Below, piece by piece: positions 23,050 to 62,658 of a stretch of DNA of 64,000 nucleotides. The stretch's first letter is position 1. Every line of letters begins with the position of its first letter. The notes under the pieces were generated by a model, which saw only the letters and a list, made by a program, of their open reading frames with translations, was not told where the DNA came from and did not search any database. The translations under genes were made by a program, and so were the position numbers. The DNA comes from an uncultured Acidobacteriota bacterium (GTDB taxonomy: Bacteria > Acidobacteriota > Vicinamibacteria > Vicinamibacterales > 2-12-FULL-66-21): positions 425,478-489,477 of the forward strand of contig CAVXUR010000004.1 of assembly GCA_963764925.1 (NCBI GenBank). Reading direction: 5' to 3'.

Positions 23050-23430
23050 CGGGCAACGCGGATCGGATCACGGGACGCGGATCGCGCGGATCGGTCTCAT
23101 GGGACGAGGATCATGCGCGGATTCCTGCTGAGAAAATAGGACGCAGCGGAGGCTGCTGTCGCACAGCACTGCTTGCACGCCGGCCGAAGGCCGGCGTGGA
23201 GTTGAGGCGCGAGACCGGAATCGCAAGCCCATGGAGCGCGCTTGGACTTGCGATTCCGGTCGCTCGCCTCAACCCCGCCGCGCTACGCGCGGTGCAAGCA
23301 GTGTCGTTCAGTGTGAGGCTGAAACCTCTTGAATCCGCGTAATCCGCGTCCCGTTGCTCCAACGAGCGTGATCCGCGTCCCGTTGATTCACGCTGCGTCA
23401 TCCGGCTCCGATCCGCGCTCCATCACACCG
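23050..23430. repeat. Composite structured repeat, copy 1: nested-hairpin core flanked by inverted GCGGATC/GATCCGC arrays
   Basis: The core is 23167..23303. The outer stem is cactgcttgca/tgcaagcagtg. There is a hairpin cgccggcc-gaag-ggccggcg, a roughly 30-bp long stem (ggagttgaggcgcgagaccggaatcgcaag / cttgcgattccggtcgctcgcctcaacccc) and a hairpin ccgcgc-tac-gcgcgg. The flanks at 23055..23124 and 23330..23425 carry gcggatc and gatccgc(gtcccgt) units respectively. Confidence 0.7.
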
Positions 23431-31274: not shown

Positions 31275-32117
31275 GTGACCCCCGGCATGACCTTGGCGCA
31301 GACAACTCCTCCACCCCTGACCGTCACCGTGAGGACGCCGTCCCAGCAGACGGTGGACCATCGTGTTTCGATCGACGTTCAGGCCCTGAACTTCTTTTAC
31401 GGGCCTAAACGAGCGCTGGAGGATATCAGCATCGCCATCCCGGCAAAGCTGGTCACCGCCTTCATCGGCCCATCGGGCTGCGGTAAGAGCACGTTTCTGA
31501 GAACGCTCAACCGGATGAACGACATCATCGCGGGGACGCGTGTCGAGGGACGCGTGCTCATCGACGGCGACGATGTCTACCGGCCCGGCACCGACGTCGT
31601 GGCGCTGCGTCGTCGGGTGGGGATGGTGTTTCAGAAGTCGAATCCGTTCCCGAAGTCCATCTTCGACAACGTGGCGTATGGCTTGCGGATCAATGGCCTG
31701 GCGGCCAATCGCTCCGACTTGCACGGGCGTGTTGAGGAGAGCCTGAGGCAGGCGGCGATCTGGGACGAGGTCAAGGATCGCCTTCACGACTCGGCTAACG
31801 CGCTCTCGGGCGGTCAGCAGCAGCGGCTGTGCATCGCGCGGGCGCTGGCCGTCAAACCCGACATCGTGCTGATGGACGAGCCGGCGTCGGCGCTCGACCC
31901 GATCGCCACCCAGCGTATCGAAGAGTTGATCTATCAGCTCAAAACGCAGTACACGATTGTGATCGTGACGCACAACATGCAGCAGGCGGCCCGCGTCTCG
32001 GACCGCACCGCGTTTTTCTGGCTGGGCCGCCTCATCGAGCACGGCCCGACCGACCGCATCTTTACCAACCCGGCCGAAAAGCTCACCGAAGACTACGTGA
32101 CCGGGAGATTTGGATAG
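31275..32117 (+). CDS. pstB: Phosphate ABC transporter ATP-binding protein PstB
   Basis: [79 protein letters not shown] and [17 protein letters not shown]. The start is GTG at 31275 or ATG at 31287. Confidence 0.95.
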
Positions 32118-32118
32118 A

Positions 32119-32218
32119 GCTCTCAGCTTTCAGCTGTCAGCTTTCAGCCAGAAGGAAAGGCTGACGGGCGACCGAGCAACACCTAGAGCTGAAAGCTGAT
32201 GGCTGATAGCTGAGAGCC
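32119..32218. repeat. Inverted pair of 4-unit heptamer arrays (GCTNTCA / GCTGANA)
   Basis: The left arm is gctctca gctttca gctgtca gctttca gcc (32119..32149). The right arm is gctgaaa gctgatg gctgata gctgaga gcc (32188..32218). The arms are complementary except at the variable unit positions. The element fills the pstB-phoU spacer. Confidence 0.75.
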
Positions 32219-32227
32219 TTTGAAATC

Positions 32228-32908
32228 ATGCCCGATCGCATCGTTCCGCACTTTCAGGAAGAGCTCGAGCAGCTCAAGACGCGCCTCCTCGAAATGGGGG
32301 GGCTCGCGGAGGACCGGGTGCGTTCCGCGGTCAAGGGTCTCGTCCAGCGTGACGCGCCGATTATCGACCGCGTGCTCGCCGGCGACGGCCCGATCAATCA
32401 GCTGCACATCGAGATCGACAGCCGGTGTTTCAAGCTGCTGGCCCTGCATCAACCGATGGCCGTCGACCTGCGGGCGATCGTCGCCGCCGTCAAGATCAAC
32501 ACCGACCTCGAGCGCGTCGGCGATTTGGCGATCAACATCGCCGAGGCAGTGCGGCGTTACATGCGGCACCCGCCCGTCAAGGAGCTCATCGACATCCCGC
32601 GCATGGCCGACATCGCCCAGCGGATGCTGCGCAACGCCCTCGATGCGTTCGTGCGCCGCGATCTCGACCTCGCCCAAAGCGTCCTCAACGAGGACGACAC
32701 GCTCGATGCGCTGAAGACGCAGGTCTTTCGCGAGCTCCTGACTTACATGCTCCAGGACACGCACACGATTGAGCCGTCGCTCGACTTGATCCTCATCTCC
32801 CGCCACCTCGAGCGGATCGGCGACCATGCCACCAACGTCGCCGAAGACGTCATCTTCATGGTGTCGGCCAGGGACGTGCGGCACCACGCAGGCGAAGTCG
32901 AGGCGTAG
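32228..32908 (+). CDS. phoU: Phosphate signalling complex protein PhoU
   Basis: Two PhoU repeats: [17 protein letters not shown] and [22 protein letters not shown]. It is 226 aa with an intact frame. Confidence 0.95.
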
Positions 32909-32910
32909 CA

Positions 32911-33001
32911 GGGCTCTCGGCTCTGGGCTCTGGGCTCAAGCAAAACCCTCGTTTGGGGGCTCCAAGCTCGTGCCAGAGCCCAGAGCCGAGAGCCCTGAGC
33001 C
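32911..33001. repeat. Inverted pair of heptamer arrays (GGCTCTN / NAGAGCC)
   Basis: The left arm is gggctct cggctct gggctct gggctca (from 32911, 3 nt after the phoU TAG). The right arm is cagagcc cagagcc gagagcc ctgagcc (to 33001). The arms are almost perfectly complementary. Confidence 0.75.
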
Positions 33002-41076: not shown

Positions 41077-41220
41077 GATGCCGTTAGCTGCCGCCGGTCG
41101 ACTCTGCTGATTCGCGCGGGGCCCCGCCCACGAGCTGCGCAGCGCTCGCTTCAGCTCGGCCGCTGGTAGCGCTCATACCGACTTGTGGCCCTCAGTCCGG
41201 TCGAGCACTGCTTCGCTCAG

Positions 41221-41307
41221 ACTCCCGACTCGGACTCCGACTCGGACTCCGACTCGACTGACTGACGACTGTGACTGACGACTGACGACTGTCGACTGTC
41301 GACTGTC
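41221..41307. repeat. Direct tandem array that switches unit: gactc[gc] x5 (6-nt) then tg[at][cg]gac x7 (7-nt)
   Basis: actccc gactcg gactcc gactcg gactcc gactc gactgac tgacgac tgtgac tgacgac tgacgac tgtcgac tgtcgac tgtcc. It lies immediately 3' of the OMP stop (41308..41310). I saw no inverted partner nearby. Confidence 0.7.
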
Positions 41308-42648
41308 CTAAAACACATGCGCCCCGTGGGCGCCGATCGAGAAAAGAAACTGGAACAGGACCTCGTTTGCCGTGACACCCTCGGCGTACCGGGTTCGCCG
41401 GTACTGGCCGCGGATCTGGCTGAACTCGCTCGGCCAGAACGTCAGCGTCAGCGATGGCCCCTTGTCGACGAGCGCGGCGTCGTAGGCGCGTTCGGACCAG
41501 TCGTAGCGGGCGCCGCCGAACCACCGGCTCGCGAACTGATACTCGCCGCTCGCATACATGCCGAAGGCGTTGACGTTGCCGCCCTCCTGACCGCGGCGGC
41601 TCCAGAAGAGTTCCGTGCGTCCCTGGAACCGGCGATAGATGGCGCGACGCAGCGGACGATACCGAACCGTCGCGTCGATCCCGACCAGCCGCGTGGTGAA
41701 ATCCGGGCCCGCGTCGTTGTGGCCGTACGCTACCGACCCGCCCACGTCGACGTTGGTCGATTCGGTCACGTCGCGATAACCGCGAAGCGCGCCCGGCCCA
41801 GCTCACGTCGCTCGGTTTGTACAGACGTGAACAGGGCCGAGTTGCCCTGATACACCTCACCGGTGGCCTCGAGGAACATGAAGGGGTTGAGGATCAACTT
41901 CGACACCGAGATGCCCGCGTCCGCCAGTCCTTCATCTCCACCGAACAGGTTTTGAATCATCAAGGGCTCGTCGACCCATGGCAGCGAATGCGCATGGAGC
42001 GTGTTCACCTTGCCGACCTGCTCCTTGAGGATGCCGACCTTGGCGAGCAGCCCACCGGGAAGCGAGGTGAGGGTCAGGAACCCTTCCTCGATCTCCACGC
42101 CCTCGGGTGAGAACGCGAGAAAGAAGTCGGCGCGCGCATAGGGATCGACGACCGCCTGAAACGTGGCCTCCGCTTCATCCAGCGCCAGCGCGGGGCTCGG
42201 GTTGACGGAGTTCTCCCCCACCGCTCCGACGAAGTTCCCGATCACGGCGATGTCGGGGTTGAAGATTTTCGAGAGCGCGCTCGTGCTGCCGTAGACCGGA
42301 AGCGAGCCCGTCGGGCCACCGGCCCCTCCCGCGCCGGACGGGACCGGAACTTCGGCCGGGACAGTCGGCGGTGCGGGCGGAGCGGGTACGGGCGGGGCCT
42401 GGCGGCGGGCTGCGGCCGGTGCCGACGGCGCCCCTATCGTCGCCAACTTCGCTTCGAGCGCCGCGAGCCTCGCGGCATAGTCGTCGCGCACCGCCTCGAA
42501 TTCTTTCCTGAGCTTGTCGAGCTCCGCCCGGACTCTCCTGCGCCTGCGGCGCCGGCGACTGCGCGGCGGCCGGAATCGACACCGCTCCTACACCCCCAGC
42601 GCACATCACGATGCGCACGGCCCTGACGAATGAAGACGTCAATGCCAC
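41308..42648 (-). CDS. Putative outer-membrane beta-barrel protein with N-terminal coiled coil (frame broken)
   Basis: The N-terminus MALTSSFVRAVRIVMCAGGVGAVSIPAAAQ is a signal peptide, followed by the coiled coil RDDYAARLAALEAKLATIG and a Pro/Ala linker. Alternating-residue barrel segments follow (ADFFLAFSPEGVEIEEGFLTL; GMYASGEYQFASRWFGGARYDW). The protein ends EVLFQFLFSIGAHGAHVF-stop. Confidence 0.55.
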
Positions 42649-42741: not shown

Positions 42742-43029
42742 TCAGCCGAAGACGGGTGGCGATCGTCCCGACGATGCCCGGAGGGGAGCGGAGGGGCGGC
42801 GGTCGGCCGAGAGGAGGAAGGCACGGCCGGCATCTCGCATGCCGACGCCGTCGAGCCCTGCTGCCCAGCCGGCAGTTTCTCCTGTCGAGGCGACGACACA
42901 GGTCGTGCAGTGGGTCGAGGATTTGAGATGGCAGAGAACGTCGTGGTGCGCCAGAGGCAGGAGCGCAGACGCCAGGACGTACGCCGCGAGCAGCACTCGC
43001 GCGAACACGCCGCACCTGGACGGACTCAT
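42742..43029 (-). CDS. Hypothetical signal-anchored His/Cys-rich protein (DUF2946-like?)
   Basis: MSPSRCGVFARVLLAAYVLASALLPLAHHDVLCHLKSSTHCTTCV has a cluster of His and Cys residues directly after a hydrophobic helix. It lies upstream of the OMP gene on the same strand. The family assignment is tentative. Confidence 0.35.
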   Translation of the reverse strand: MSPSRCGVFARVLLAAYVLASALLPLAHHDVLCHLKSSTHCTTCVVASTGETAGWAAGLDGVGMRDAGRAFLLSADRRPSAPLRASSGRSPPVFG

Positions 43030-43054
43030 CTCACTTTCCAGTATACAAGGAACT

Positions 43055-43230
43055 GGTTCAGGGTTCAGGGTTCAGGGTTCAGGGTTCAGGGTTCAGGGTT
43101 CACGGGTTCACGGCCGGGTTCAGGGTGCACAGTTCCTCACAATGCTGCACTAGCCCTCTCGAAACCTTGAACACTGAACGTATGAACCCTGAACCGTGAA
43201 CCTTGAACCATGAACCGTGAACCATGAACC
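43055..43230. repeat. Inverted pair of GGTTCAG / NNTGAAC heptamer arrays (GGTTCAG family, locus 1)
   Basis: The left arm has six perfect ggttcag units (43055..43096) followed by degenerate units to about 43135. The right arm (43161..43230) has about 9 units: cttgaac actgaac ..cctgaac cgtgaac cttgaac catgaac cgtgaac catgaac. The rhomboid ATG (43224) lies in the last unit. Confidence 0.85.
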
Positions 43231-43910
43231 GGCGTGAAAGCTATACTCCGAAGAAAGTGTTTCCGGTCAGCGACGTCATCCCGTCCCGCACCACTCCCGT
43301 CGTCACCATCACCCTCATCGCGACCAACGCCCTCGTGTTCCTCTACGAGCTCACGCTGGACGATCGCCAACTGCAGACGCTGGTGCAGAGCTACGGCGTC
43401 GTCCCGGCGCACTTTTCGCTGGTGACGCTCGTGACCAGCCTGTTTCTGCATGGCGGCTGGCTGCATTTTCTGGGCAACATGTTGTATCTCTGGATTTTTG
43501 GCGACAACGTGGAGGACCGTCTGGGCCACGGGCGGTTCGCGATCTTCTATATCGGCTGCGGGGCCGCGGCGGCCCTCGGCCAGATGGCGACGAGCCCCAT
43601 GTCTTCCCTCCCGATGGTTGGCGCCAGCGGCGCGATCGCGGGCGTCATGGGCGCCTACTTCGTGTTCTTTCCACAGTCGCGCGTGTTGACGGCCGTGTTC
43701 ATCGTGTTTTTCATGGACCTCATCGAGATTCCCGCGATCTTCTTTCTGGGCATCTGGTTTCTGATGCAGTTCTTCAGCGGCGTCGGCTCGCTTGGCGCCG
43801 ATGCCGCCCAAGGCGGGGTCGCGTTCTGGGCCCACATCGTCGGATTCGCGGTCGGAGGGTTCGTGGGAGCGCTGTGGCGAGGGGTGGAACGGAGGGGGTG
43901 GGAGTACTGA
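43224..43910 (+). CDS. Rhomboid-family intramembrane serine protease
   Basis: LFLHGGWLHFLGNMLYLWIFGDNVEDRLGH, GASGAIAGVMGAYF (GxSG) and a later His in WAHIVGFAVG. The frame is intact. Confidence 0.9.
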   Translation: MNRRESYTPKKVFPVSDVIPSRTTPVVTITLIATNALVFLYELTLDDRQLQTLVQSYGVVPAHFSLVTLVTSLFLHGGWLHFLGNMLYLWIFGDNVEDRLGHGRFAIFYIGCGAAAALGQMATSPMSSLPMVGASGAIAGVMGAYFVFFPQSRVLTAVFIVFFMDLIEIPAIFFLGIWFLMQFFSGVGSLGADAAQGGVAFWAHIVGFAVGGFVGALWRGVERRGWEY

Positions 43911-43911
43911 T

Positions 43912-44028
43912 GGTTCACGGTTCAGGGTTCACGGTTCATGGTTCAGGTTCAGGGTTCAGGGTTCAAGGGAACTCTGAACCTTGAACGTTGAACCATGAAC
44001 CTTGAACCCTGAACCGTGAACCGTGAAC
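43912..44028. repeat. Inverted pair of GGTTCAN / NTGAACC heptamer arrays (GGTTCAG family, locus 2)
   Basis: There are eight units per arm around the centre gggaact. The left arm is ggttcac ggttcag ggttcac ggttcat ggttca ggttcag ggttcag ggttcaa. The right arm is ctgaac cttgaac gttgaac catgaac cttgaac cctgaac cgtgaac cgtgaac. It fills exactly the gap between the convergent stops at 43908..43910 and 44029..44031. Confidence 0.85.
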
Positions 44029-45038
44029 CTAGGATTTAACCCGTTTCCGAATGTCCTGATTGACCCTGGCGAGCTCGATCATCAGGCGTTCGAACTCCTG
44101 TTGATACTCTGCCGGCTGGAGAAAGCTGCGGCGGACCTTGAGCTCATCGAGATCAGCCTCGAGCGCCGCGCGCTTCTGCAGCAGCTTCAGCAGCACCTCG
44201 TCAGTCGGACGCGCGCCGGGGAGTGGCTCATCGAGATAGACGTGGCTCGAGAGCGATCCATCCTCGCCGTTGCCGCCGGCGTCCCGGCCGACCCCGTCGC
44301 CATTGTCGTCGAGTAGCGCCCGCTCCGTGGAGAGCTGCCCGCGGCGCTGGTAGTGCCGCCGCACTTCGCCGGTCGCCGCGGTGAACGCCTCCCAGATGGA
44401 AATTCGATCGTTCTTGTCGATGTCGGACGCGTCGCTCCTCAGAGCTTTGATGAAGTAGTCGGGAAACACCGTGTCAAACCGTTGCGCCACCGAGTCGGTT
44501 GCGGTGATGACCACCCGGCGCTCGCCAGTCAGCCGCTCGATGAACGGAAAGCTTGCCGACGATGTGTTGACGACCACGACCCGGCCGGGCAGTCCCGCCA
44601 CGAGCTCTGCCCACTGCGCCGATTCCAGATCGGCTCCGACCAGATTGAACTTGGCGTCGACGCCATCGTAGGTGCCGTGGCCGATGAGGACGATGAACAG
44701 GAGGTCGTCGCGCGTCATCGCGCGCCGGATGGTGCTGAGATGTTGGCGGACGTTAGCGGCGGTGGACGCGGTCGACGGGTCGGGCGTATCGGTCAGCACT
44801 TTCAGGTGCGCGCGATCGATCTTCATCCGCTCGACGAGCACGGCCGCGAGATCCCGGGTCCAGCGCGGCGTACTGCGTGGCGTACTCCTGCGCCGCCGCT
44901 CGCGCCCGACGACGATGAGCGCGTAGCGCTCGCCGGCCGCAGGCTGCGTCGCGCGGCAGCGTGACGGAGCACGGCCGCTGCGCGGCTGCGCAGACGCCAG
45001 CCGACCTTCCGCTGAAGCCGGAAGCCACGGTTGGTCAT
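44029..45038 (-). CDS. Legumain/C13-like protein with C-terminal coiled coil (frame broken near the 5' end; start approximate)
   Basis: ERYALIVVG..., LFIVLIGHGTYDGVDAKFNLVGADL, VVVVNTSSASFPFIERL, RVVITATDSVAQRF and ISIWEAFTAATGEVRRHY are followed by LLDDNGDGVG and the coiled coil LLKLLQKRAALEADLDELK. The His-Gly motif is present, but the position where I expect the catalytic Cys reads Ser. Confidence 0.5.
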
Positions 45039-45045
45039 ATCTTGT

Positions 45046-45072
45046 CTTGAACCTGAACCCTGAACCCTGAAC
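45046..45072. repeat. Single-arm CTGAACC-type array (GGTTCAG family, locus 3)
   Basis: cttgaac ctgaac cctgaac cctgaac lies in the 40-nt gap between the VWA gene stop (45078) and the legumain-like start. Confidence 0.7.
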
Positions 45073-45077
45073 GCCTC

Positions 45078-47329
45078 TCACCGGAGCCCCCACGTCCGTC
45101 TCAGACATCCATTCCGCTCCGAGCAGCACCAGTATCGCCGCAAACGACCATCCCGTGTGCCAGAGATCGCGCCGAACGACCATCGCGGCATCCGGCACGG
45201 CCGCCTTTCAGCAGGTCCGCCAGCTCCGGCACCTGATCCTCGGCCAGCACGCGGCCGCCGGACCGTGCGGCAAGCCGCTCGAGGAACGCTCGGTTCACGC
45301 GCGGGTCGGTCATCTCGAGATCGGCCCCGCCGACCAGCACCGACGCGCTGGCCGTTCCGACGAGCGTCGCTCCCCGCCGCACCTCCGCCGACACCTTGAA
45401 AACGCCGGCGTGCTCGGGCCGTGCGTGTGCGACGTAGCTGCCCGTCGTTTCCCCGGGCGGTGTCGGGCGCCGGCCGCGGAGCGACTCGACGCGACCATCG
45501 GGCGACGTGACGCGGACGTCGACGGCGACATTCTTCAGCGGCTCGAACGCGGCGTTCCGGGCGACCACTCGGAGCGGCAGCGTGTCGCCTGGCGCGGCAC
45601 CCGGCTCGACGCTCAGCTGAATCGGATCGCCGGCCGGAAGCGCGAGCCAGCGCAGCGCCTGCTTCCAGAACGTGTCGTACGCGCGATCGGTCGCGGGCGG
45701 CAGCATGCGCCACCGCCACGACGCTTCGCCGGCGAAGACCATCGACCGGCCTTCGCCGAATCGTTGCACCGCGACGAGCGCGCGGGGCGTGCCGCCGGGT
45801 CCGCTCGTCACCGCCAGCACGCTGGCGCCGGGGCGAGGACCGCCGAGCGGCGCGATCGAGGCGAGCGCCGGCACGGCCTCCCATCGCTTCCGCGTGTCGT
45901 CTGCGCCCGCGGCGAGCTGCATGACGGGGTGCGCTTCGCCCGCCGGCGGTGAGCGACACGCGATTCGCCCGCGTGCCACCGACGCGGGCACGACATCGCC
46001 GCCGGCGCACGAGCTCGACCGCGGCGCCGCCGCGATCGTTGAGATCGAGGGCAAGCACGTCCTCGAGCGCAGTGCCTGCGAGCCCCTGGCGCAGGAACGA
46101 CCGCGCGCCGAGCACGAGCAGGCCGCCGCCGCGCTCGCCGACAAAGCTTCGCGTCGCGTCGAGCTGCGCCCTTCGTGAACTGGTGTGCCTCGACGTTGGC
46201 GAGCACCACCGCGTCGTAGCGGAACAGCGCCTCGCGCGTGGCCGGATATCCAGCGGCGAGGCTGTCGCTCCGCGACTGCGCGGCCTGGATGTAGAACGTG
46301 TCGGCGCCCTGCTCGTTCCTGCCCTTGCGCACGACCGAGTCGATCTCGAGGCCGGGATCGGACGCCCAGGCGCGCTTGAGAAAGCTGTGCTCGAACCCGG
46401 GCGCGCCCTCGACGAGCAGGACGCGGCGGGTTCTCGAGGGCGGCTGAACGAGGGTGCTGCGCGCGTTGTTCTCCGGCACGAGCTCGCCTGCCGCGACGGG
46501 CGTCTCGACGGTGTAGACCGTCGGCGCGCCGCGGCCCGGCGACACCTGAAAGACCTCGCGCACGGGCGAGCCCTCCGCCGCCGGCGTCACGCGCCTGACG
46601 TCGATCGGCCGGCCGTTCTCGAGCAGCCGCAGCTCGATCGGCGCGTTCCCCAGCCCATGGCTCACCGCAGACACCGCCAGGTCGACGCGCGAATCGTCCA
46701 GGATCGCTTCGGCGGCCGTCACGCCGAGGATCTCGCGATCCTTGCCGGCGGTGGGCGATCCCGACAGCCAAGCGTGTAGATCGGCGGCCCGCCCTCCGCC
46801 GCGCGCTCGCCCGCGCCGCTCGTGTCCCCGCCGTCCGACAGCAGGACGACGCCCGCGACGCGCCGGCCCCGATAGCGGTCGCGAACCGCGGCGAGCGCCC
46901 CCGCGACGTCGCTTCGCCGCGCCGCGGCGGACAGCTGCGCCGGCGCCACCGGCGCAAGCGCCGTCGCCGAAGCCGAGCACCTCGACGTGAAACTGCGATC
47001 CGAGCGCCGGCAGCAGCCGATCGACGACGATCCGCCGCGCCCGATCGATCCGCCGTCCGCCGCCGGCGGCATCCTCGATGCTCATGCTCCGCGACGTGTC
47101 GACGAGAATCGCGACGATGGCGTCGCGGGCGTCGGCGTCGGTGCCGCGGGCGACCGGGCCGGAGCAGAAAGACGACGAGCGCGAGAAGGGTGACGAAGCG
47201 GAGCGTCACGAGGACCCGGCGCCGCGATGGCGACAGCGTGCGGCGGTTGTAGGCGAGCCACGCGACGAGACCGGCCGCGGCGACGATGAGGGCGAGCGCC
47301 CACCAGGGAAGAGGGTTCGCGAAGGACAC
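45078..47329 (-). CDS. Membrane-anchored VWA-domain protein with GATase1-like middle domain and C-terminal TM (many frame changes)
   Basis: The GTG at 47329 opens (M)SFANPLPWWALALIVAAAGLVAWLAY...LRFVTLLALVVFLLRP (double-TM N-terminus). Then come AIVAILVDTSRSMSIEDA (VWA MIDAS-like), RVLLVEGAPGFEHSFLKRAW...YDAVVLANVEAHQFT, VAVQRFGEGRSMVFAGEASWRWRM, TFWKQALRWLA and the tail DLWHTGWSFAAILVLLGAEWM. Confidence 0.75.
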
Positions 47330-47335
47330 GCCGGC

Positions 47336-58249: not shown

Positions 58250-58625
58250 CGAAACGGAGAGGACGGAGGTAACGGCACGATCTTCACCACGGAGCAACGG
58301 AGCTGAAATGAGCGGGAGACGCACGGAGGCTGTCACGCTGCATTCACGCTCAACCAGTTTTTCGCGCGAAGTCGCGTCGCTGAGAGGCAGTACATAGAGA
58401 CTGCTTGGACCGCGCGAAGCGCGGTTGGGATGATGCGAGGGACCGGGATCGCAAGCACCCGTGGTGCTTCAGAGGGTGTTTGCGATCCCGGTCCCTCGCA
58501 TCATCCCCACGCCGGCCAAAGGCCGGCGTCCAAGCGGTCTGCAGCTCGACAGCCTCCGTGCGTCTCCGTGCGCCCCGTGCCTCCGTGGTGAAAACCGTGA
58601 ACTCCGTCCGCTTCGTCAGCAGCTA
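58250..58625. repeat. Composite structured repeat, copy 2: nested-hairpin core flanked by inverted CACGGAG/CTCCGTG arrays
   Basis: The core is 58399..58539. The outer stem is gactgcttgga/tccaagcggtc. The hairpins are ccgcgc-gaa-gcgcgg and cgccggcc-aaa-ggccggcg, and there is a roughly 35-bp long stem gggatgatgcgagggaccgggatcgcaag.../...ttgcgatcccggtccctcgcatcatccc. The flanks gagacgcacggaggctgtc (58314..58334) and gacagcctccgtgcgtctc (58549..58567) are inverted. The orientation is opposite to copy 1. Confidence 0.7.
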
Positions 58626-60609: not shown

Positions 60610-61131
60610 CTATCGTGATCGCAGACCGAGCGCCCGCTCCTCGACGCGCACGCGCGCGACGAGCAGCGCGCCAAACGCGGCGAGCGACAGCGCGCCAGCC
60701 ACCGGCGCTCGCGCGAGCAGCGCAAACCCGACGAGCTCGCCAACGACGGCGACGTAGTTGGGATGCCGCAGGAGGCGGTAGGGCCCGCGCAGCGTCCGCG
60801 CCGATCCAGGCGGCACGAGCACGCGAAACGTCCACCGGTCGCCGAGCGTCCCGATCGCCCAGTACTTCAGCGCTTTGGCGCTGATGAAGACCAGACCGCC
60901 GGCGAGAGCCGTCCAGCCGAAGCCGCGCCACGCACCCAGCGCCTCCACCACCATCGCCAGAAAGCAGAGCGGATAGGCGACCTGCATGAGCGCATAGACG
61001 TCGTCGGCCGGCTCGACCGCACCAGCGGCGCGCAACGCGCGCTCATTGGCCGCCGAGCGGCGAGCCTCAAGGAGCATCGGGACAAACCCGACGGCCAACA
61101 GGACTGCGATCGAAATTGGTTCAGGGTTCAT
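60610..61131 (-). CDS. Isoprenylcysteine carboxyl methyltransferase (ICMT/PEMT)-family membrane methyltransferase
   Basis: GLVFISAKALKYWAIGTLGDRWTFRVLVPPGSARTLRGPYRLLRHPNYVAVVGELVGFALL carries the RHPNY motif. The frame is intact. The first codons, ATG AAC CCT GAA CC, are repeat units. Confidence 0.85.
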   Translation of the reverse strand: MNPEPISIAVLLAVGFVPMLLEARRSAANERALRAAGAVEPADDVYALMQVAYPLCFLAMVVEALGAWRGFGWTALAGGLVFISAKALKYWAIGTLGDRWTFRVLVPPGSARTLRGPYRLLRHPNYVAVVGELVGFALLARAPVAGALSLAAFGALLVARVRVEERALGLRSR

Positions 61132-61281
61132 GGTTCAGGGTTCAGGGTTCAGGGTTCAAGCAGGTTCAAGGTTCAAGGTTCAGAGTTCACGGTCCAACGT
61201 TCTGAGAACCGCGACTCGGAACCTCCTGAACCCTGAACCTTGAACCTGAACCGTGAACCCTGAACCCTGAACCCTGAACCC
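61118..61281. repeat. Inverted pair of GGTTCAN / CCTGAAC arrays (GGTTCAG family, locus 4)
   Basis: The left arm is ggttcag ggttcat ggttcag ggttcag ggttcag ggttcaa ..ggttcaa ggttcaa ggttcag agttcac (61118..about 61202). The right arm is cctgaac cctgaac cttgaac ctgaac cgtgaac cctgaac cctgaac cctgaac (about 61225..61281). It fills the gap between the flavoprotein stop (61284) and the ICMT start (61131). Confidence 0.85.

Positions 61282-62579: not shown

Positions 62580-62648
<69 letters not shown>

Positions 62649-62658
<10 letters not shown>

Follow-up and report, generated by a model that had tools for sequence, protein, structure and literature searches.

Heptanucleotide repeat palindromes on both flanks of a rhomboid protease gene in an acidobacterium

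In the genome of a Vicinamibacterales acidobacterium, within a window of 64,000 nucleotides (the whole stretch of contig CAVXUR010000004.1 analysed here), lies a gene for a rhomboid intramembrane protease whose two flanks are both occupied by long palindromes of a seven-nucleotide repeat, GGTTCAG. An earlier reading of the letters alone (hereafter the sequence-only reading) saw in this arrangement a possible regulatory cassette built around a single gene, and offered as an alternative that it could be a footprint of how such arrays arise. The results of this work lie closest to that alternative. Both palindromes are probably intergenic heptanucleotide simple sequence repeat (SSR) arrays that occur in inverted pairs, head to head, the G-rich arm being the 5′ one on whichever strand is read, and the bracketing of the gene would be a by-product of local clustering, not a cassette. 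The arrays are of slippage type and cluster locally; stop codons and -10 boxes mark their limits, and relatives lack them or have others in their place.

The rhomboid gene and its two palindromes

The upstream palindrome begins with a G-rich left arm (43055-43126) of six perfect GGTTCAG units followed by GGTTCAC and degenerate ones, continues through a non-repetitive or degenerate centre (43127-43162), which would form the loop, and ends with a C-rich right arm of NTGAACC units (43163-43230), whose variable base N is mostly without complementarity to the G of the left arm. The downstream palindrome has its G-rich left arm at 43912-43965, starting 1 nt past the rhomboid stop, its centre AAGGGAACT (around GGGAACT) at 43966-43974, and its C-rich right arm at 43975-44030, the last bases of which overlap the stop of the convergent gene; its extent is exactly that of the 118-nt spacer separating the rhomboid stop (43908-43910) from the convergent one (44029-44031). 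In outline this had been described by the sequence-only reading, and it is borne out, far in excess of chance: the 13-mer GGTTCAGGGTTCA, which corresponds to two units, occurs 44 times in the window with up to two mismatches, against 0.84 expected from shuffles, the largest shuffled count being 4. The hairpins it anticipated are also predicted, and are very stable. The RNA of the upstream palindrome folds at -107.9 kcal/mol (z -8.2) and that of the downstream one at -97.7 kcal/mol on the plus strand (z -13.4) and -84.8 kcal/mol on the minus strand (z -12.9), whilst the predicted DNA folds reach about -60 and -56 kcal/mol, respectively. It is unlikely that the palindromes are artefacts of assembly, since synteny with relatives holds on both sides and megabase long-read contigs show an architecture of the same kind. 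The upstream palindrome carries a signature of slippage, in the form of six identical left-arm units opposite heterogeneous right-arm units. No Rfam family was found in the window.

The sequence-only reading took as the start of the gene an ATG (43224-43226) within the last repeat unit, CATGAAC, of the upstream palindrome. This ATG is indeed there and in frame, but it is not the start codon. The start codon of 33 Acidobacteriota orthologues directly precedes a conserved N-terminus, M-[F/I]-P-x-x-D-V-I-P, and among the 116 homologous rhomboid loci with a unique N-terminal motif (drawn from L001-L080 and L200-L279) the start stands directly before [FI]P-x-x-D-V-I-P in 113. The corresponding codon in the window is GTG 43257, 27 nt past the end of the upstream array, and since the orthologues begin at that position, their alignment places the true rhomboid start there and not at ATG 43224. 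The latter would add 11 residues without counterpart in the orthologues, lacks a Shine-Dalgarno sequence ahead of it and sits upstream of a -10-like box. The gene so revised runs from 43257 to 43910 on the plus strand and encodes 217 amino acids. Its product carries the rhomboid domain PF01694 (Pfam search, E 5.6e-33, residues 65-218 of the 228-amino-acid open reading frame, ORF, that opens at ATG 43224), with sub-threshold matches only to the GlpG and rhombosortase models of NCBIfam. The best relative in a genome is 73% identical and the best in a metagenome 78%. The contig index contains neither the 228- nor the 217-amino-acid product, and an exact 28-mer of the 3′ end of the gene was not found in the metagenome collection.

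The -10-like hexamer is TATACT (43242-43247, plus strand), placed between the upstream array and GTG 43257, 9 nt before the latter, in an arrangement of the leaderless type. A TAnnnT hexamer is found 4-11 nt (mostly 6-7) before the start in 48 of the 116 loci, compared to 1-14 at shifted control positions, and stands 6-9 nt before it in most Acidobacteriota orthologues, with TATACT, TAGAAT, TACAAT and TAAAAT as variants. The rhomboid mRNA is thus probably leaderless or near-leaderless, beginning with the start codon or immediately beside it, and the family as a whole, judging by these hexamers, suggests a common leaderless habit across Acidobacteriota and beyond. With a conserved -10-like box between array and start, the upstream hairpin probably lies outside the rhomboid mRNA and, being outside it, could not gate its translation; such an mRNA should have no ribosome-binding region to hide. 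The translational gating proposed by the sequence-only reading, which had itself named a true start downstream of the array as fatal to the idea, fails on this point, and the upstream palindrome would be spacer DNA, situated before the rhomboid -10 box and having no role in translation. A scan for the sigma-70 consensus gave no match at the arrays, and the TGAACC units, considered as a -35-like element, match at only 2-3 of 6 positions at the right spacing, so that no such element is claimed. Metatranscriptome contigs matching the gene derive from many related genes and offer no usable 5′ or 3′ ends.

On the other side of the upstream palindrome, a divergent gene seems to be read in the same manner. 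This is a small conserved ORF of 95 amino acids (42742-43029, minus strand) with a hydrophobic N-terminal segment and the motif HHD-x2-CHLKS-x-THCTTC, for which neither Pfam nor NCBIfam gave a match; a homologue stands at the same position in one relative (L002, 2633-2932), and a zinc-ribbon-like gene (MQCRxCG...) takes its place in L001, L005 and L200. It has a -10-like TATACT of its own (43040-43045, minus strand), 10 nt before its ATG 43029, and the equivalent position reads TATAAT in both L002 and L200. The upstream palindrome is thereby placed precisely between two back-to-back -10 boxes, and may be seen as an insertion of about 176 bp between two back-to-back leaderless-type promoters. 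Its symmetry reaches both boxes (43040-43047 and 43240-43247), where the predicted fold pairs AGTATAC with GCTATACT at the foot of the hairpin, because each promoter reads TATACT on its own strand.

The downstream palindrome, in its turn, would be transcribed at the 3′ ends of both convergent genes and would fold into a hairpin of about 55 bp. The sequence-only reading likened it to a bidirectional terminator, which it possibly is, although not a canonical one. Like an intrinsic bidirectional terminator it is a GC-containing stem-loop between convergent stops; unlike one, whose stem has 5-15 bp and is followed by a U-tract, it has a stem of about 55 bp, is not conserved, and shows no U-tract on either strand, its tails being UAGGAUUUAAC (plus) and AUCAGUACUCCC (minus). 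An intrinsic-terminator consensus scan found nothing at the arrays.

The same flanks in relatives and the other arrays of the window

The comparison with the orthologous locus, which had been proposed as a check on the cassette, turned out against it. In the closest relative (L200, with 78% amino acid identity) the divergent spacer is 55 nt long and holds two -10 boxes and no array, and the convergent spacer (1821-1870) is occupied by a direct array, (GGCTCAG)n, whose unit is one base off GGTTCAG. This array may be homologous to that of the window at 43912-44030, with the unit changed by concerted evolution and an inverted arm added in the lineage of the window. The convergent stop-to-stop spacer of relatives measures 2-63 nt and is plain in some of them and taken up by direct repeats of unrelated kinds in others (9-mers in L001, GAAGCTG/GAAACTG units in L002, TTGGGAG units in L005); in many it has a length of just 2-50 nt and no strong hairpin. 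Upstream of the rhomboid gene there are palindromic arrays of other units in L005 (GGTCTCT) and L028 (ATTGAGG), and arrays of different units adjoin the -10 box in L016. By these comparisons the large hairpin is not conserved at either flank of the rhomboid gene, nor is the downstream one a requirement of the locus, and the trait that recurs is a tendency to short tandem repeats, in these spacers as in others.

The cassette of the sequence-only reading, in which the upstream hairpin sequesters the ribosome-binding site together with ATG 43224, the downstream one terminates transcription from both sides and the two of them insulate the gene, is very unlikely in the light of these results. It draws on the great stability of both hairpins, on the exact fit of the downstream one to the convergent spacer and on the in-frame ATG in the last repeat unit. 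The GTG start with its conserved -10-like box, the missing Shine-Dalgarno sequence and the arrayless upstream flank of the nearest relative nevertheless speak against its first half, and the missing U-tract, the relatives with no comparable hairpin and the lack of enrichment of palindromes at convergent sites against its second.

Nor is the rhomboid gene the only one so bracketed. Arrays are present in 8 of the 54 spacers of the window, and all eight array loci are intergenic: three GGTTCAG palindromes, one half array of the same family, two palindromes of the units AGCTTTC and GGGCTCT, and two loci of direct arrays. The half array is unpaired (CTGAACC x3.7, 45048-45072) and lies in the spacer next to the downstream palindrome, whilst the third GGTTCAG palindrome (61118-61281, arms 61118-61193 and 61225-61281) lies between divergent genes. 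An AGCTTTC/GCTGAAA palindrome (32118-32217) fills the spacer between pstB (31275-32117) and phoU (32228-32908), and a GGGCTCT/AGAGCCC palindrome (32911-33001) directly follows the phoU stop, making phoU, in or at the end of a pst operon, a second gene with repeat hairpins on both sides, here of other units. The direct arrays are CTCGGA/CTCCGA with CGACTGA (41216-41307), adjoining the stop of a minus-strand gene (41308-41769), and GTCTTCT with CTAGCTC (62580-62657), between convergent genes. By a strict criterion the window has 11 arrays of period 7 and none of periods 5, 6, 8 or 9. The spacers that bear them are clustered, with four adjacent pairs (permutation p 0.006), and the GGTTCAG family is found in three consecutive spacers (p 0.012). 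This local clustering explains the bracketing of the rhomboid gene without invoking the gene itself, and the notion of a single-gene regulatory cassette is not supported.

The convergent gene, which the sequence-only reading called legumain-like, is conserved and syntenic in L001, L002, L005 and L200, and may be assigned to 44029-44841 on the minus strand, with its true start uncertain. All that stands of the name is a weak metacaspase (clan CD) match, at E 0.014, and neither Pfam nor NCBIfam gave a match. The convergent ORF as it stands (44029-45198) takes in the array at 45048-45072, which has no stops, and runs into the end of the upstream gene; its called start therefore lies too far upstream. 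Farther on, the stretch from 45100 to 47330 has long ORFs that overlap one another in separate frames (45101-47329, 45808-47085), hinting at a frameshift, a mistake in the assembly or spurious ORFs of high GC.

The window also holds repeats of other kinds. A palindromic element of about 85 nt with the core GCGnGnGACCGGnATCGCAAG...CTTGCGATnCCGGTCnCTCGC, REP-like or like a miniature inverted-repeat transposable element (MITE) and unrelated to the heptamers, is present in two copies (58424-58510 and 23198-23276); a third and different palindrome of 67 nt lies at 682-748. Repeats of nine nucleotides, of the CGCGGATC/GATCCGCG type, are found at 23057-23122 and 23332-23349, and it is a related 9-mer array that fills the convergent spacer behind the rhomboid gene of L001 (3657-3770).

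Architecture and orientation of heptamer arrays across loci

The statistics across loci cover 199-279 loci of many phyla, and their counts are approximate. Four exact GGTTCAG units in a row occur in at least 119 stretches, from Acidobacteriota, Planctomycetota, Lentisphaerota, Verrucomicrobiota, Gemmatimonadota, Proteobacteria and others. Several GGTTCAG arrays (e.g., in L098, L115, L118 and L125) stand at contig ends, where the assemblies break. The unit, read as GGGTTCA/TTCAGGG, is identical to a telomere variant of Plasmodium and plants, so that isolated hits in gut Firmicutes bins could be contamination. The sampled loci yielded 464 arrays in all, and the 411 arrays of the GGTTCAG-bearing loci fall into 178 unit classes; the sequence of the unit seems to be arbitrary, given such a diversity of bystander arrays. 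Of the pairs formed by adjacent arrays, 106 combine different units; where the two share their unit, 50 pairs are inverted and 4 direct. Palindromes are often 0-20 nt away from both flanking ORFs, 45 of the 46 evaluable ones in other loci are intergenic, and their distribution over tandem, divergent and convergent spacers (30/8/7) keeps to the proportions of all spacers (491/167/175). Palindromes, then, fill the space that is available, with no specificity for 3′ ends.

The 7-bp period and the conserved 6-bp core GGTTCA followed by a variable base do resemble iterated binding sites, and heptad arrays bound by regulators exist in the literature, such as the omega/ParB heptads of pSM19035 or the heptameric direct repeats of SARP regulators. 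Nevertheless, the 178 unit classes among 411 arrays, in addition to the several units in the window alone, would call for as many cognate proteins, and arrays are found in all types of spacer, including those internal to operons. It is therefore most unlikely that the arrays are there to bind proteins.

Architecture is constant in one respect. All GGTTCAG palindromes have the G-rich arm first, as 5′-(GGTTCAG)n...(CTGAACC)n-3′ (25:0), palindromes of other units with a skew favour the same order (26:8), and it holds for 51 of the 59 skewed palindromes of all units taken together. A fixed order of arms in 25 of 25 GGTTCAG palindromes from many phyla, in addition to the several copies in the window, could be expected of a mobile element of the MITE or REP kind, with terminal inverted repeats built of heptamers, that was inserted on both sides of the gene. 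Against this, the three GGTTCAG palindromes of the window have centres without homology and of unequal length (36, 9 and 31 nt), the lengths of the arms and the variants of their units differ among copies, other units share the architecture, and no target-site duplication or flanking direct repeat is visible in the window sequence. No identical full-length copies with target-site duplications, and no precise empty sites, were seen. We hold such an element to be highly improbable.

Single arrays are oriented as well. Among those within 40 nt of one gene border only, the strand leaving the gene is the G-rich one in 50:3 cases at starts and in 70:13 at stops (together 120:16, or about 88% of 136); arrays were masked in these counts, as G-rich units free of stops would otherwise allow an ORF to continue across them. 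Where a single array fills a tandem spacer, its sense strand is mostly C-rich (22:9), and all arms of both palindromes flanking the rhomboid gene fit the rule that the G-rich strand leaves the gene. The candidate explanation that arrays avoid C-rich RNA to escape Rho was rejected: where the flanking genes are co-directional, the sense strand of single GGTTCAG arrays is mostly the C-rich one (36:15). Polar growth of arrays was unsupported too, residual units being as frequent beyond the 5′ as beyond the 3′ ends of 258 single arrays (0.024 vs 0.026, p 0.84).

The Rho factor favours C-rich, G-poor and unstructured RNA, and in E. coli it suppresses antisense transcription. The orientation rule could accordingly be the mark of insulators at gene borders, where inbound RNA is C-rich and G-poor, and so loads Rho, whilst outbound RNA is G-rich, the two blocking read-through and antisense transcription in genomes poor in terminators. 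The departure of the G-rich strand from genes at starts and stops, the G-first order of the palindromes, the C-rich sense strand of arrays filling tandem spacers and a matching placement in Xanthomonas and Nostoc (PMC4692102) are all in line with such a proposal. Its support is, however, purely correlative, many units have little G/C skew, and within palindromes the C-rich arm pairs with the G-rich one and is hidden from Rho; we regard it as unlikely. Loading of Rho on inbound and structure in outbound RNA would be the most economical functional idea for the orientation rule, though a doubtful one. The same doubt applies to the wider claim that the arrays make up a general insulator system independent of sequence, with a hairpin or a G-rich structure on the outbound side and with palindromes as its double-sided form.

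Alternatively, (GGGTTCA)n could act as a G-quadruplex in DNA or RNA and modulate a promoter or an untranslated region, as was proposed for GGGAATC and GGGGAYT arrays. In the left arm of the upstream palindrome seven G3 tracts follow one another with loops of 4 nt, which satisfies the motif at 43055-43103, and the related class forms G-quadruplexes in vitro (PMC4692102). The G3 tract is broken, though, in most right-arm units and in most of the downstream palindrome, the complementary arm competes by forming a hairpin, and most other units have no G run and obey the same orientation rule. The capacity to form G-quadruplexes is therefore not the common denominator of the arrays, and a function of this kind is quite unlikely.

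We therefore return to the reading of both palindromes as intergenic SSR arrays. In this reading, arrays would arise and change by replication slippage, with occasional inverted duplication or conversion, would expand until they meet a selected sequence such as a stop codon or a -10 box, and would tend to emerge in neighbouring spacers. Remnants of units are more common in the centres of palindromes than in their outer flanks (0.064 vs 0.016, p 3e-6), whereas a test for a shared order of variant units in the two arms, which is sensitive to insertions and deletions, had a mixed outcome, with significance in 10 of 41 pairs. Some results nonetheless weigh against so neutral a picture, or counsel caution with it. 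The orientation rule (120:16) shows that the placement of arrays is not neutral, and at gene borders they are likely to interact in some way with transcription or with the structure of the DNA. Repeats of one kind or another also return in the two rhomboid spacers of many relatives, and arrays may have a weak locus-specific preference for these flanks, 17 of the 42 arrays in 37 loci flanking the gene where about 12 are expected. Lastly, gene calls were crude, being made by ORF length and GC content at third codon positions with arrays masked.

Kinship with known repeats and significance

Tandem heptamers have been described in other bacteria, where heptanucleotides are, in the account that PMC4679880 gives of Mrazek 2007, the commonest long SSR. 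The closest to those of the window are the GGGAATC arrays of Xanthomonas and the GGGGAYT arrays of Nostoc, intergenic and of 2-26 units (Rehm et al. 2015, PMC4692102). Each Xanthomonas genome has 70-75 inverted pairs of them in convergent, G-rich-first, orientation, and their G-rich strand is antisense up to 50 bp upstream of ORFs and sense up to 50 bp after stops, often overlapping the stop (PMC4692102). Related species have the same spacers occupied, with much variation in length and sequence; the arrays form G-quadruplexes in vitro and are transcribed, and no function was established for them (PMC4692102). The arrays of the window match every structural feature of this class, namely head-to-tail G3N4 units, intergenic location, convergent inverted pairs and the placement rule. 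They differ in their unit, GGGTTCA, whose seventh base is highly variable and often breaks the G tract, in their longer arms (8-10 units) with hairpins of about -100 kcal/mol, in their host, an acidobacterium, and in that the genome of the window also has many units without G runs under the same rule. The palindromes of the window are thus members of the known heptameric class of intergenic repeats, to which the GGTTCAG unit is newly added; no paper was found on GGTTCAG arrays in bacteria or on heptamer arrays in Acidobacteria.

Other known repeats share part of these features. The TAACTGA heptamers of Beggiatoaceae form direct repeat arrays in spacers, often a few nucleotides from start codons (PMC4679880). 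Together with the STRR family they have in common with the arrays discussed here the heptanucleotide unit, the location in spacers and near start codons, and the scatter of a unit over distant phyla. STRR heptamers are reportedly a feature of cyanobacteria, described by Mazel in 1990. STRR and TAACTGA arrays are, however, mostly short and direct, with one dominant AT-rich unit, and were proposed as sites of translational regulators, whereas arrays of the window type have many units and are commonly found as long inverted pairs.

The REP/BIME sequences of enterobacteria are likewise intergenic, internal to operons or between convergent genes, arranged in inverted pairs and folded into stable stem-loops in mRNA. 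They protect upstream mRNA from 3′ exonucleases and attenuate read-through. In function they are the closest analogy to the downstream palindrome, whose hairpin would plausibly hold off 3′ exonucleases and obstruct read-through in the manner of a REP. REPs are nevertheless conserved family units of 20-40 nt spread by RAYT transposases, with no tandem 7-mers and no slippage of units, and the structures of the window, made of tandem 7-mers of arbitrary unit classes, are not members of that family. Finally, the slippage-prone repeat beside a promoter recalls the SSRs of phase-variable promoters. Unlike these, the upstream array lies 5′ of the -10 box, and the functions at hand (rhomboid, phoU) are of the housekeeping kind; the array being periodic, gain or loss of units would leave the sequence at the -35 position, and its spacing, unchanged.

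The results of this work have a practical bearing on annotation, since stop-free repeat units draw ORF calls into arrays, as with ATG 43224 and with the convergent ORF that runs through 45048-45072. They also add Acidobacteriota and many further phyla to Xanthomonas and cyanobacteria as hosts of the heptameric intergenic class. That the placement rule holds for units unable to form G-quadruplexes points away from these structures and towards an effect of strand composition at gene borders. Should the rule of orientation at gene borders prove to reflect a general mechanism of transcription insulation, the interest of these arrays would rise accordingly.

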